Below are positions 39,104 to 40,510 of a stretch of DNA of 64,000 nt, in pieces. Below the pieces are notes generated by a model. The model had not been told where the DNA came from and did no database searches. It saw nothing but the letters and a program-made list of their open reading frames with translations. The translations under genes were made by a program, and so were the position numbers. This stretch comes from a phage. Position 1 is the stretch's first letter. Every line of letters begins with the position of its first letter. Where the stretch lies: the sequence record PZ386980.1; one strand, 5' to 3'.

Positions 39104-39180
39104 TGGTCGAGACAGAAGGATTCTAACCTTCAACCTACGGATTAGAAGTCCGTTGCTCTATACAATTGAGCTATGCCTCG
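39104..39180 (-). tRNA. tRNA-Arg (anticodon TCT)
   Basis: Manual cloverleaf: 7-bp acceptor stem, anticodon loop CTTCTAA, T-loop TTAGAAT, encoded CCA. Confidence 0.85.
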
Positions 39181-39184
39181 TATT

Positions 39185-39259
39185 TGGCGGACATGCATGG
39201 ATTCGAACCATGGACCAATTGATTAACAGTCAACTGCTCTACCACTGAGCTACACATCC
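39185..39259 (-). tRNA. tRNA-Asn (anticodon GTT)
   Basis: Manual cloverleaf: anticodon loop CTGTTAA, T-arm CATGG-TTCGAAT-CCATG, encoded CCA; acceptor stem has two G-U pairs. Confidence 0.7.
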
Positions 39260-39263
39260 AAAT

Positions 39264-39350
39264 TGGTGGGGAGTGATGGAGTCGAACCACCCGAGTCGCA
39301 ATGACAATGAATTTACAGTCCACACCGCTACCTCTACGGGATAACTCCCC
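39264..39350 (-). tRNA. tRNA-Tyr (anticodon GTA), class II with long variable arm
   Basis: 87 nt; perfect 7-bp acceptor stem GGGGAGT/ACTCCCC, anticodon loop CTGTAAA, 15-nt variable arm, encoded CCA. Confidence 0.7.
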
Positions 39351-39362
39351 TAATTCATAATT

Positions 39363-39437
39363 TGGTGGCCCTGGGTGGAATTGAACCACCATCTGGCGAT
39401 TATGAGTCGCTTGCTTGAACCTTCCAGCTACAGGGCC
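39363..39437 (-). tRNA. tRNA with CAT anticodon (Met, or Ile if lysidine-modified)
   Basis: Acceptor GGCCCTG/CAGGGCC, anticodon loop CTCATAA, T-loop TTCAATT, encoded CCA. Confidence 0.75.
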
Positions 39438-39438
39438 T

Positions 39439-39514
39439 TGGTGCTGATTGACGGAATCGAACCGCCGACCTTCTCATTACAAGTGAGTTGCTCTACCTAC
39501 TGAGCTAAATCAGC
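39439..39514 (-). tRNA. tRNA-Thr (anticodon TGT)
   Basis: Acceptor GCTGATT/AATCAGC, anticodon loop CTTGTAA, T-loop TTCGATT, encoded CCA. Confidence 0.85.
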
Positions 39515-39519
39515 AAAAC

Positions 39520-39609
39520 TGGCGGAGGTGATAGGATTCGAACCTATGAATCGCCGGAGCGACTGCCGGTTTTCAAGACCGGTGCATTCAACCACTCTGC
39601 CACACCTCC
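39520..39609 (-). tRNA. tRNA-Ser (anticodon TGA), class II
   Basis: 90 nt; anticodon arm CCGGT-CTTGAAA-ACCGG, long variable arm, T-loop TTCGAAT, encoded CCA. Confidence 0.85.
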
Positions 39610-39615
39610 AAATAT

Positions 39616-40266
39616 TTATATATTGTTAATTTGATTTAGAATTCTTTTTGCTTGAGTATGACTTACGCCAATATGCTTAGCATATTTAGATAATTCACCA
39701 CGCTTAGAAAAATCATATAATTTAGAAATTTCTATTCTTCTTTTTCTTTCATCCGCAGAAACTTTTGCTTCGTTTGCTTTTGCTATTTTACGTTTAGCTT
39801 CTTGAGAATGAGTTTTACCAGCAAAGCCATTCTTCATTAATCCATTTGAAGACCATCCTTTTAATTTTCCGTTAGAATGTGCCTTTTTAACACCCAATGA
39901 AATTAATTCGCGCTGCTGATCTGTCATAGGATAATTATTTATATGATCCCATCCACCTTCACCGCCAAGTTTTAAATTATACACATCTGGTCTATTTAAA
40001 AACTCTTCTGTAACAATATTTTTCTCGGCTTCAAGCATAGATTCTTTATCATCAAAATACTCTAATATTTCTTTAGAAAAATTTTCTATACCATATTTAT
40101 CTTGGGCTCTTTTTAATAATTTACCAGAACCCATATATCCATCATCTAAATTTTCGGTAGAATGCACACCAATATAAATTTTATTATTAATTTTATTTGT
40201 TATTTTATAAAGATAAAAATGCATATCAGTCCCTAATAAAGAACTGAGCGTCTCACGACGAGTCAT
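39616..40266 (-). CDS. segB: GIY-YIG homing endonuclease (SegB-like) inside the tRNA cluster
   Basis: 216 aa; FYLYKIT...KIYIGVHS...GYMGSG GIY-YIG motifs, basic C-terminal half; sits between tRNA-Gly and tRNA-Ser. Confidence 0.7.
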   Translation of the reverse strand: MTRRETLSSLLGTDMHFYLYKITNKINNKIYIGVHSTENLDDGYMGSGKLLKRAQDKYGIENFSKEILEYFDDKESMLEAEKNIVTEEFLNRPDVYNLKLGGEGGWDHINNYPMTDQQRELISLGVKKAHSNGKLKGWSSNGLMKNGFAGKTHSQEAKRKIAKANEAKVSADERKRRIEISKLYDFSKRGELSKYAKHIGVSHTQAKRILNQINNI

Positions 40267-40270
40267 AAAT

Positions 40271-40344
40271 TGGAGCGGATAATGAGAATCGAACTCACAT
40301 CATCAGATTGGAAGTCTGAGGTAATACCATTATACGATATCCGC
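40271..40344 (-). tRNA. tRNA-Gly (anticodon TCC)
   Basis: Acceptor GCGGATA/TATCCGC, anticodon arm TCAGA-CTTCCAA-TCTGA, T-loop TTCGATT, encoded CCA. Confidence 0.85.
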
Positions 40345-40349
40345 AAATT

Positions 40350-40436
40350 TGGTGCGAGAAGTGGGACTCGAACCCACAAGGAAATCATTCCGCAGCATTT
40401 TAAGTGCTGTGCCTTTACCAATTTGACCATTCTCGC
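40350..40436 (-). tRNA. tRNA-Leu (anticodon TAA), class II
   Basis: 87 nt; anticodon arm CAGCA-CTTAAAA-TGCTG, long variable arm, encoded CCA. Confidence 0.85.
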
Positions 40437-40437
40437 G

Positions 40438-40510
40438 CTGGGAATAAAGGACTCGAACCTTTGCATCCTGGAATCAAAATCCAGTGCCTTACCAACTTGG
40501 CTAATTCCCA
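40438..40510 (-). tRNA. tRNA-Gln (anticodon TTG); 3' CCA not encoded
   Basis: Acceptor TGGGAAT/ATTCCCA, anticodon arm CTGGA-TTTTGAT-TCCAG, T-loop TTCGAGT; only 2 nt separate it from tRNA-Leu. Confidence 0.8.

Follow-up and report, generated by a model that had tools for sequence, protein, structure and literature searches.

The tRNA operon of the RB51 window

We analysed the tRNA gene cluster of a phage (sequence record PZ386980.1) within a stretch of 64,000 nucleotides, hereafter the window, and in particular a GIY-YIG homing endonuclease gene, seg, which lies between two of the tRNA genes. Window positions 38700–40900 are 100% identical to the corresponding part of the genome of phage RB51 (NC_012635, 70845–73045), and also to those of phages RB68 and Ac3. 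The GenBank record of RB51 already annotates the same nine tRNAs (predicted by tRNAscan-SE, with the CAU anticodon assigned to Ile) and a 'truncated SegB-like' homing endonuclease between the genes for tRNA-Gly and tRNA-Ser. The locus is the T-even tRNA operon of RB51, occupied by an endonuclease gene at the Gly/Pro position, and has been sequenced and annotated before. As in the T-even tRNA operon, the cluster is situated between trna.2 and e.8, its genes lie on a single strand in colinear order, and rnaD, rnaC and a terminator are found at its end.

Nine tRNA genes were found by ARAGORN in the whole 64-kb window, all of them on the minus strand at 39104–40510, with the identities and coordinates that a preliminary description of this DNA had assigned from the letters alone. 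The order in the direction of transcription is Gln(UUG), Leu(UAA), Gly(UCC), a gap of 661 bp, Ser(UGA), Thr(UGU), a tRNA with the anticodon CAU, Tyr(GUA), Asn(GUU) and Arg(UCU). Each gene of the cluster is present in a single copy in the window and no amplification was seen. The features of the cluster, all on the minus strand, are as follows.

40437–40510, minus: tRNA-Gln (UUG); ARAGORN; Rfam, 67.4 bits; CCA not encoded
40350–40436, minus: tRNA-Leu (UAA); ARAGORN, Rfam; CCA encoded
40271–40344, minus: tRNA-Gly (UCC); ARAGORN; CCA encoded; the 3' end (CTCCAATTTA) forms the 5' junction with the endonuclease cassette
40225–40270, minus: leader of seg, 46 nt; RNA fold, scan
39936–40224, minus: N-terminal GIY-YIG domain of seg (residues ~1–96 of 202 aa); Pfam PF01541
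39616–39935, minus: C-terminal half of seg, ~106 aa, putative DNA-binding module; BLASTP, breakpoint alignment, Pfam
39610–39615, minus: spacer of 6 nt from the seg stop to the first base of tRNA-Ser; sequence
39520–39609, minus: tRNA-Ser (UGA); ARAGORN; CCA encoded
39439–39514, minus: tRNA-Thr (UGU); ARAGORN; Rfam, 72.9 bits
39363–39437, minus: tRNA with CAU anticodon, Ile2 (lysidine) type; ARAGORN; closest to E. coli tRNA-Ile
39264–39350, minus: tRNA-Tyr (GUA); ARAGORN; tRNAscan-SE in GenBank
39185–39259, minus: tRNA-Asn (GUU); ARAGORN
39104–39180, minus: tRNA-Arg (UCU); ARAGORN

Eight of the nine tRNAs match the Rfam tRNA model (59–73 bits, E = 1e-10 to 1e-14). The tRNA-Tyr (39264–39350, minus strand), which has a long variable arm, scores below the Rfam gathering threshold for tRNA and is matched best by the tRNA-Sec model (29.9 bits), although ARAGORN calls it, as does tRNAscan-SE in the GenBank annotation; scans relying on Rfam alone would therefore count eight tRNAs in this cluster, not nine. 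The absence of tRNA-Pro, another point of the preliminary description, was confirmed, as neither ARAGORN nor Rfam, even at a permissive threshold, detected such a gene in the window.

The T4 set had been given in that description as Gln, Leu, Gly, Pro, Ser, Thr, Ile and Arg, in agreement with the T4 annotation, and the RB51 arrangement does differ from it. T4 keeps Pro and places segB between Ile and Arg, a slot that the preliminary description did not mention; RB51 lacks Pro, possesses Tyr and Asn, and carries Ile and Arg alleles unlike those of T4.

An endonuclease cassette in the place of tRNA-Pro

The gap between tRNA-Gly and tRNA-Ser contains a single open reading frame (ORF; 39616–40266, minus strand, 216 aa). 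Nucleotide homology to an endonuclease-free relative, IMG/VR contig L008, breaks off at window position 40266 and begins again at 39610, the base preceding tRNA-Ser; 655 bp in RB51 thus stand for 80 bp (spacer plus tRNA-Pro) of L008. The GIY-YIG gene thus occupies precisely the Pro slot, where the preliminary description had put it. The cassette starts directly after CCAATTTA, which follows tRNA-Gly, and consists of the 46-nt leader, the 202-aa GIY-YIG endonuclease gene and a short filler. With a slash marking the boundary, the 5' junction reads ...CGCTCCAATTTA/TGACTCG... and the 3' end of the cassette reads ...AATCAAATTA followed by ACAATATATAAATATTT/GGAGG(Ser). The filler, 17 nt in length (39626–39610), overlaps the last seg codons and occupies what would be the beginning of tRNA-Pro; its end is the 6-nt spacer listed above.

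The translation start of seg is probably the ATG at 40224, giving a protein of 202 aa, because T6 SegB starts at the equivalent methionine, the corresponding leader of Klebsiella phage Mineola is closed by a stop codon, and a ribosome-binding site precedes this ATG. An upstream in-frame ATG at 40266, with which the 216-aa ORF begins, was rejected as the start on the same three grounds. The RB51 leader can fold into a hairpin of 9 bp (40247–40226) that pairs the Shine-Dalgarno sequence AGGGA just 5' of the ATG and is present in both the minimum free energy and the centroid folds. The same leader is found after tRNA-Tyr in T6 and after tRNA-Gly in Mineola. We also considered whether the leader is a relic of the tRNA-Pro 5' end and rejected the resemblance as chance, since the alignment was no better than those of shuffled sequences (p = 0.04 for RB51 and 0.9 for Mineola).

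Arrangement of the cluster in related phages

Differences in the tRNA sets of T-even phages have been catalogued since the 1970s. A 2010 review gives 8 tRNAs for T4, 9 for T2, 7 for T6 and 9 for RB51, the range among T-even phages being 7 to 10 (PMC2993671). The arrangements compared here, with inserted genes in brackets, are the following.

T4: Gln Leu Gly Pro Ser Thr Ile (segB) Arg rnaD rnaC
T2: Gln Leu Gly Pro Ser (ORF T2_137) Ile Tyr Asn Arg (ORF T2_136)
T6: Gln Leu Gly Thr Ile Tyr (segB) Arg
IMG/VR contig L008: Gln Leu Gly Pro Ser Thr Ile Tyr Asn Arg, endonuclease-free
IMG/VR contig L007: arrangement of L008 with an added His
Shigella phage CM8: HNH gene in the Gln slot and RB51-type gene in the Pro slot, without Tyr and Asn

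Counts of phage records given here and below refer to the INPHARED collection. The IMG/VR relatives were retrieved through the Trna.2 protein and comprise six loci only; they served to document the endonuclease-free arrangements of ten and eleven tRNAs and are too few for statistics. Comparison of gene orders shows the ancestral-type cluster to be Gln-Leu-Gly-Pro-Ser-Thr-Ile-Tyr-Asn-Arg. Since endonuclease-free relatives possess all ten of these tRNAs, both T4 and RB51 derive from the full set by deletion. An uninterrupted Tyr-Asn-Arg segment is found in 188 phage records, and T4 has segB in the slot where RB51 has Tyr and Asn; these two tRNAs were therefore lost in T4 and not gained in RB51. 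They had been described as extra; this holds inasmuch as they are present here and absent from T4, but not in the sense of additions to RB51. In all cases examined, an endonuclease gene or its relic stands in the slot of the tRNA that is missing: Pro in RB51, Tyr and Asn in T4, Asn in T6, Thr in T2 and Gln in CM8. The segment Gly-Pro-Ser is intact in 447 phage records, compared with ~57 that contain the RB51 cassette, and this polymorphism of presence and absence, with clean and constant junctions, is typical of homing endonuclease genes.

The differences between the tRNA sets might alternatively be seen as adaptive tuning to codon usage or host, in which selection favoured the gain of Tyr and Asn and the loss of Pro, the endonuclease being an incidental passenger. 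The codons AAT and TAT are indeed very frequent in the long ORFs of the window (50.6 and 35.2 per 1000, respectively), Pro codons are rarer, and the variation in tRNA number noted above would be compatible with such tuning. However, genomes that are ~95% identical, and therefore expected to be alike in codon usage, carry Pro (447 records) or lack it according to the presence of the cassette, so that codon usage cannot discriminate between them. In addition, the physical replacement of the missing tRNA in every case examined, and the persistence of the codons CCA and CCT, servable by tRNA-Pro(UGG), at 13 and 16 per 1000, speak against selection for loss of Pro, and we regard this explanation as highly improbable.

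The seg product combines the catalytic domain of SegB with an unrelated C-terminal half

The protein encoded by seg matches the GIY-YIG family of Pfam (PF01541; 26.8 bits, cut-off 22.6). Its catalytic region is nearly identical to that of SegB: window positions 40210–39936 share 272 of 275 nt (98.9%) with T4 segB (product NP_049745), and positions 40279–39936, which include the leader, share 336 of 344 nt (97.7%) with T6 segB (product BBF63551). The flanks are only ~94–95% identical (94.6% for T4), and the difference between head and flanks is significant (Fisher p = 5e-4 for T4 and 5e-3 for T6). The catalytic residues Y17 and G19 of T6 SegB are conserved in RB51 Seg. The similarity to the T4 and T6 genes ends abruptly at ~39936–39937, right after CATATAAATA, that is at about codon 96 of the 202-aa frame (~residue 110 of the 216-aa ORF). 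In agreement with this, BLASTP gives 83% identity to T4 SegB in the first 117 aligned residues of the protein and no similarity beyond them. The designation 'segB-like' in the preliminary description is therefore correct for the catalytic half, but the DNA-binding half is a different module.

When the C-terminal half was compared with Pfam in isolation, it matched NUMOD3 (22.8 bits, cut-off 20.4) and gave a weak helix-turn-helix signal (HTH_10, E = 0.022). An AlphaFold model built from the single sequence was poor (predicted local distance difference test score, pLDDT, of 53), with only residues 160–200 predicted confidently, as helices; it did not justify fold searches. A search of solved structures returned nothing meaningful, with no detectable sequence similarity. 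We consider the tail a putative DNA-binding module composed of NUMOD3 and a probable helix-turn-helix. The plan of the protein would then be that of I-TevI, in which an N-terminal GIY-YIG domain and a linker are followed by C-terminal NUMOD3 and helix-turn-helix (PMC2330249; Pfam), although I-TevI is intron-encoded and resides in td. According to tblastn searches, the tail is present at ≥95% identity in 56 phage records, at ~70% in Klebsiella phages and at ~41% in T2_137.

The last-mentioned ORF of T2 (locus L003, 2221–2622, minus strand; 133 aa) has retained no more than a DNA-binding module akin to the tail of RB51 Seg (33% identical over 115 aa; the ~41% applies to a shorter stretch), preceded by a short Cys/His-rich segment, and is probably a relic of another endonuclease. 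The HNH gene in the tRNA-Gln slot of CM8 (locus L014, 1965–2573, minus strand) has a C-terminal helix-turn-helix that resembles that of the Seg tail.

T4 segB and RB51 seg belong to the same tRNA operon and strand, each is wedged between tRNA genes with tRNA missing at that position, and in each the leader has a hairpin that covers the ribosome-binding site (published for T4, PMC2330249; folded here for RB51). They differ in slot, which is Ile/Arg with Tyr and Asn replaced in T4 and Gly/Ser with Pro replaced in RB51, as well as in the leader and in the unrelated C-terminal half. Consequently, of the attributes of SegB proper RB51 Seg has the catalytic domain, but neither the recognition domain of T4 SegB nor its slot, which is upstream of tRNA-Arg with tRNA-Asn absent; in RB51 the gene lies between Gly and Ser, and Asn is present. 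T6 segB shares with RB51 the 46-nt leader, the first codons (MHFYLYK) and the catalytic domain, but has a C-terminal half of the T4 type and is placed after tRNA-Tyr, where it replaces Asn.

A homologue in Klebsiella phages

A full-length homologue of RB51 Seg, 61% identical overall, is encoded by the Jiaodavirus Mineola (YP_010096117). The two have in common the tail (~70% identity; ~92% at the DNA level over the last 112 nt), the leader and the position right after tRNA-Gly; the catalytic domain of the Mineola protein is only ~63% identical to that of RB51, and an extra NUMOD3-like repeat of ~18 aa is present. In Mineola the gene is a pure insertion in the Gly/Pro spacer: tRNA-Pro is kept and the ORF stop codon lies inside it. 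Endonuclease-free Jiaodavirus genomes read ...GCTCCAAATT/ACTCCGTATAGC(Pro) at this site, and Mineola reads ...GCTCCAAATT/GTGACTCG...(~695 bp)...AATCAAAATT/ACTCCGTATAGC, a clean insertion with AAATT microhomology; the Jiaodavirus junctions are ...CCAAATT/cassette...CAAAATT/ACTCCG(Pro). The Gly/Pro site is occupied in 14 Jiaodavirus records and empty in more than 100.

A probable second SegB lineage at the Gly/Pro spacer

On these grounds we assign the RB51 gene to a second SegB lineage ('type II') residing at the Gly/Pro spacer, as distinct from the T4-type lineage ('type I'), and do not regard it as a truncated SegB. The encoded protein does not differ between RB51, AR1, PhiZZ30, CM8 and vB_Eco_EL (100% identity), although the flanking DNA is 86–98% identical. 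Because it is invariant in five phages with diverged flanks and retains Y17 and G19, RB51 Seg is probably functional.

The opposite possibility is that seg is a dead or decaying remnant, that the loss of Pro was an unrelated neutral deletion and that no homing takes place at this site today. The GenBank submitters' label 'truncated' agrees with this, as does the size of the protein, which at 202 aa is shorter than SegB (221 aa) and has ~18 residues fewer than Mineola Seg, including one NUMOD3-like repeat. Decayed relics do occur in the cluster (T2_137 consists of the DNA-binding part only), and the tRNA region is non-essential for T4 (PMC2330249). Yet the ORF is intact and its product unchanged in five phages whose flanks differ by 2–14%, the head is virtually identical to those of the biochemically active T4 and T6 SegB, and the supposed truncation is a different C-terminal module with a full-length homologue in another genus. 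The cassette is moreover found with constant junctions in ~57 records, and we judge decay quite unlikely.

We thus consider it likely that the RB51 tRNA operon is in an endonuclease-occupied state at the Gly/Pro position, in which a chimeric type II Seg cassette, inferred to be a homing element, has taken the place of Pro. Several observations weigh against this interpretation. Mineola keeps tRNA-Pro beside the gene, so the loss of Pro is not a necessary result of insertion and may have been a separate deletion in the Tequatrovirus lineage. Descent of the entire region from a recent common ancestor, and not homing, could account for the high conservation of Seg. The submitters' label and the ~18 residues by which RB51 Seg falls short of its Mineola homologue count here too, and the poor single-sequence model leaves the helix-turn-helix on weak evidence.

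Within Tequatrovirus, heads and tails of the two lineages appear to have been exchanged. T6 combines the type II leader and first codons with a type I tail, and T4 and Salmonella phage Manna have another leader with a type I tail. T6 segB looks like a recombinant of an RB51-type 5' part and a T4-type 3' part, or the reverse, and recombination close to the boundary of the domains has recently mixed the type II with the T4/T6 type I lineage. A probe for the shared head detected 183 copies in 182 records, so that types I and II occur together in at most one record. A wider scheme, which we put forward tentatively as somewhat short of an even chance, would have at least two SegB lineages in the tRNA clusters of T-even phages and Jiaodavirus, with a shared catalytic domain and different DNA-binding modules, type I homing to tRNA-Asn and type II to the Gly/Pro site; recent head/tail swaps would explain T6, and each lineage would prune a different tRNA.

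Proposed mechanism of spread

T4 SegB recognises ~27 bp at the 3' ends of tRNA genes (GGTTCRANTCC...CCAR) and cuts just after CCAR (PMC2330249). It prefers the tRNA-Asn of T2L, and in crosses of T4 with T2L it is inherited by nearly 100% of the progeny, with loss of T2L markers (PMC2330249). Its activity and its target in tRNA-Asn have been shown experimentally; those of RB51 Seg are predicted. The T2L tRNA region (AJ880101), the recipient in the 2008 study, shares with RB51 its Ile(CAU) and Tyr alleles and the order Tyr-Asn-Arg-ORF. T2 differs in that Pro is kept and Thr is absent, with ORF T2_137 in the Thr slot.

Judging from its insertion site and by analogy, in a mixed infection RB51 Seg would cut endonuclease-free genomes at or near the 3' end of tRNA-Gly and the 5' end of tRNA-Pro. 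Because the catalytic domain of SegB prefers CCAR, the cut is likely to follow the CCAA at the end of tRNA-Gly, at a distance of 4 nt from the junction seen here and near ...CCGCTCCAA/TTTAATTTACTCCGTG... of the empty allele. The tail would read the neighbouring sequence, plausibly the conserved 5' half of tRNA-Pro. Insertion would then separate the site of the tail from the cut site in Mineola, and would remove it in RB51. Repair from an RB51-type template would copy the cassette in, and in Tequatrovirus the Pro deletion would spread along with it. Reciprocally, T4 segB would have removed Tyr and Asn from T4. The Shine-Dalgarno hairpin probably keeps the expression of seg low, together with processing of the tRNAs at either side of the mRNA, as has been proposed for T4 segB (PMC2330249); cleavage by RNase P at tRNA-Ser would sever the seg message 6 nt past its stop codon, as proposed for T4 segB and tRNA-Arg.

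The segment 39209–39183 of the RB51 tRNA-Asn is a close match to the 27-bp preferred T4 SegB site mapped in the T2L tRNA-Asn, and the site nucleotides G6, A16, G18, A26 and A27 are all retained. RB51 should therefore be a recipient for type I, as T4 should be for type II. That endonuclease-driven gene conversion remodels the tRNA cluster, as the preliminary description suggested, is supported by the precedent of T4 SegB against T2L; such conversion of T-even tRNA regions was shown in 2008 (PMC2330249) and is not a new idea.

A different role for the enzyme would be counter-defence, in which it is kept to break the tRNA array and thereby drive amplification or rearrangement of neighbouring tRNA genes when tRNAs come under attack from the host. 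The tandem, break-induced amplification of tRNA-Tyr and segB that overcomes Septu depends on T6 SegB, and a statistical association of segB with tRNA genes has been described (PMC13096335). RB51 Seg shares the catalytic domain and leader of T6 SegB, and natural rearrangements at T-psi-C motifs exist, such as a Gly/Tyr hybrid tRNA beside segB in phage OES_C-1. Set against this are the single gene copies in the window, the position of the RB51 gene beside Gly and Ser, not Tyr, and a DNA-binding half unlike that of the enzyme studied. Such a role is, in addition, compatible with homing and not exclusive of it. As the explanation for the RB51 gene we consider counter-defence unlikely.

The OES_C-1 hybrid (locus L017, PQ553088, ~2079–2203, minus strand) begins as tRNA-Gly at its 5' end and continues as tRNA-Tyr to its 3' end, with the joint within the T-psi-C motif GTTCGA. 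A T6-type leader and a type I segB come next; the cluster has lost Pro, Ser, Thr and Ile, and ARAGORN calls only Gln, Leu and Arg in it. In its structure the hybrid looks like the repair of a SegB break between two tRNA genes.

tRNA alleles and processing

The tRNA with the CAU anticodon, for which the preliminary description left the choice between Met and Ile, is closest among E. coli tRNAs to tRNA-Ile of the ileX type (81.6% identity over the full length), and is therefore assigned to the lysidine-dependent Ile2 type and not to Met. It represents the T2L allele, being identical to T2 at 80 of 81 positions and to the tRNA-Ile of T4 at only 51 of 81; the T2L allele was named tRNA-Met in the 2008 SegB paper (PMC2330249).

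tRNA-Leu is identical to its counterparts in T4 and T2 (93/93) and tRNA-Tyr to that of T2 (93/93). Among T-even phages the Leu, Gly and Tyr alleles are identical, while Arg and Asn are strongly diverged: tRNA-Arg of RB51 (39104–39180) shares 46 of 83 positions with T4 and 68 of 83 with T2, and tRNA-Asn 69 of 81 with T2. The type I segB cassette is accompanied by the T4-type Arg allele. The 100% identity of Gly-Leu-Gln among carriers of the RB51 cassette was considered as a possible co-conversion tract and found uninformative, these genes being near-invariant in all T-even phages.

tRNA-Gln matches those of T4 and T2 at 72 of 80 positions. All eight differences fall in the anticodon stem-loop, where the changes are compensatory in the stem and introduce different bases at positions 32 and 38; the 3' end and the junction are the same as in T4. 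These changes may help the tRNA to evade anticodon nucleases.

tRNA-Gln is the only one of the nine tRNAs without an encoded CCA, as had been observed from the letters, but its distance from tRNA-Leu is one base rather than the 2 nt given then, unless the discriminator is counted: a single C separates the discriminator G from the first base of tRNA-Leu, at a junction that is the same in T4. The dimeric Gln-Leu precursor proposed on that basis is correct but not new, the spacing being that of T4, for which such dimers are textbook knowledge (PMC11143913). Six of the eight T4 tRNAs derive from dimeric precursors, the classic one being Pro-Ser, in which neither tRNA encodes CCA (PMC11143913). tRNA-Ser of RB51 does encode CCA, unlike that of T4 (PMC2330249, PMC11143913). 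The classic Pro-Ser precursor cannot exist in RB51, in which tRNA-Ser follows an mRNA.

Downstream of the cluster and elsewhere in the window

The features between tRNA-Arg and the end of the transcription unit, all on the minus strand, are listed below.

38735–39085, minus: ORF of 116 aa (RB51ORF141, equivalent of T2_136); GenBank, alignment; insertion/deletion between tRNA-Arg and rnaD
~38620–38738, minus: rnaD homologue; blastn/alignment to T4, 101/119 identical
~38475–38613, minus: rnaC homologue; blastn/alignment to T4, 136/139 identical
38401–38424, minus: terminator-like hairpin and T run, 3' of rnaC; scan

RB51ORF141 had no match in Pfam. It is found in RB51, T2, AR1, CM8 and L007; T4, T6 and L008 lack it, and in them Arg lies directly next to rnaD. 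The tRNA transcription unit ends with rnaD and rnaC (38475–38738). A 40-bp sequence containing the terminator after rnaC (window 38388–38427; L008 7601–7640) recurs ~430 bp downstream in relatives; in the RB51 record a neighbouring ORF (window 37873–38346) is flanked by a 34-bp imperfect direct repeat and is possibly another insertion.

A second GIY-YIG-like coding stretch is situated at ~21123–21341 of the window (minus strand) and is 36% identical to the catalytic domain of Seg over 77 aa. Two seg-like genes have been reported for RB51 (PMC2993671), and this stretch is presumably the other one.

Novelty and implications

Variation at this locus is of an ordinary and largely published kind, and the genome and its annotation are public. 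A literature search, made in a limited collection, did not find the type II SegB lineage described. Only this second lineage, with a DNA-binding domain of its own and a Gly/Pro home conserved across two genera, appears to be undescribed.

The comparison corrects a common assumption, in that the eight-tRNA set of T4 is an endonuclease-trimmed derivative and not the reference state. The two lineages offer a natural case of modular retargeting, the same nuclease head being joined to a different DNA-binding tail and placed in a different slot of the same cluster. The slot is conserved across two phage genera. The case could help engineers of GIY-YIG nucleases. If the type II enzyme is active with a bipartite site, formed by the 3' end of tRNA-Gly and the 5' end of tRNA-Pro, it would exemplify natural retargeting of a homing endonuclease by domain exchange within one locus. 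For the phages themselves, the finding bears on which tRNAs are kept and which are lost, a question that links to the bacterial defences that target tRNAs (PMC13096335).

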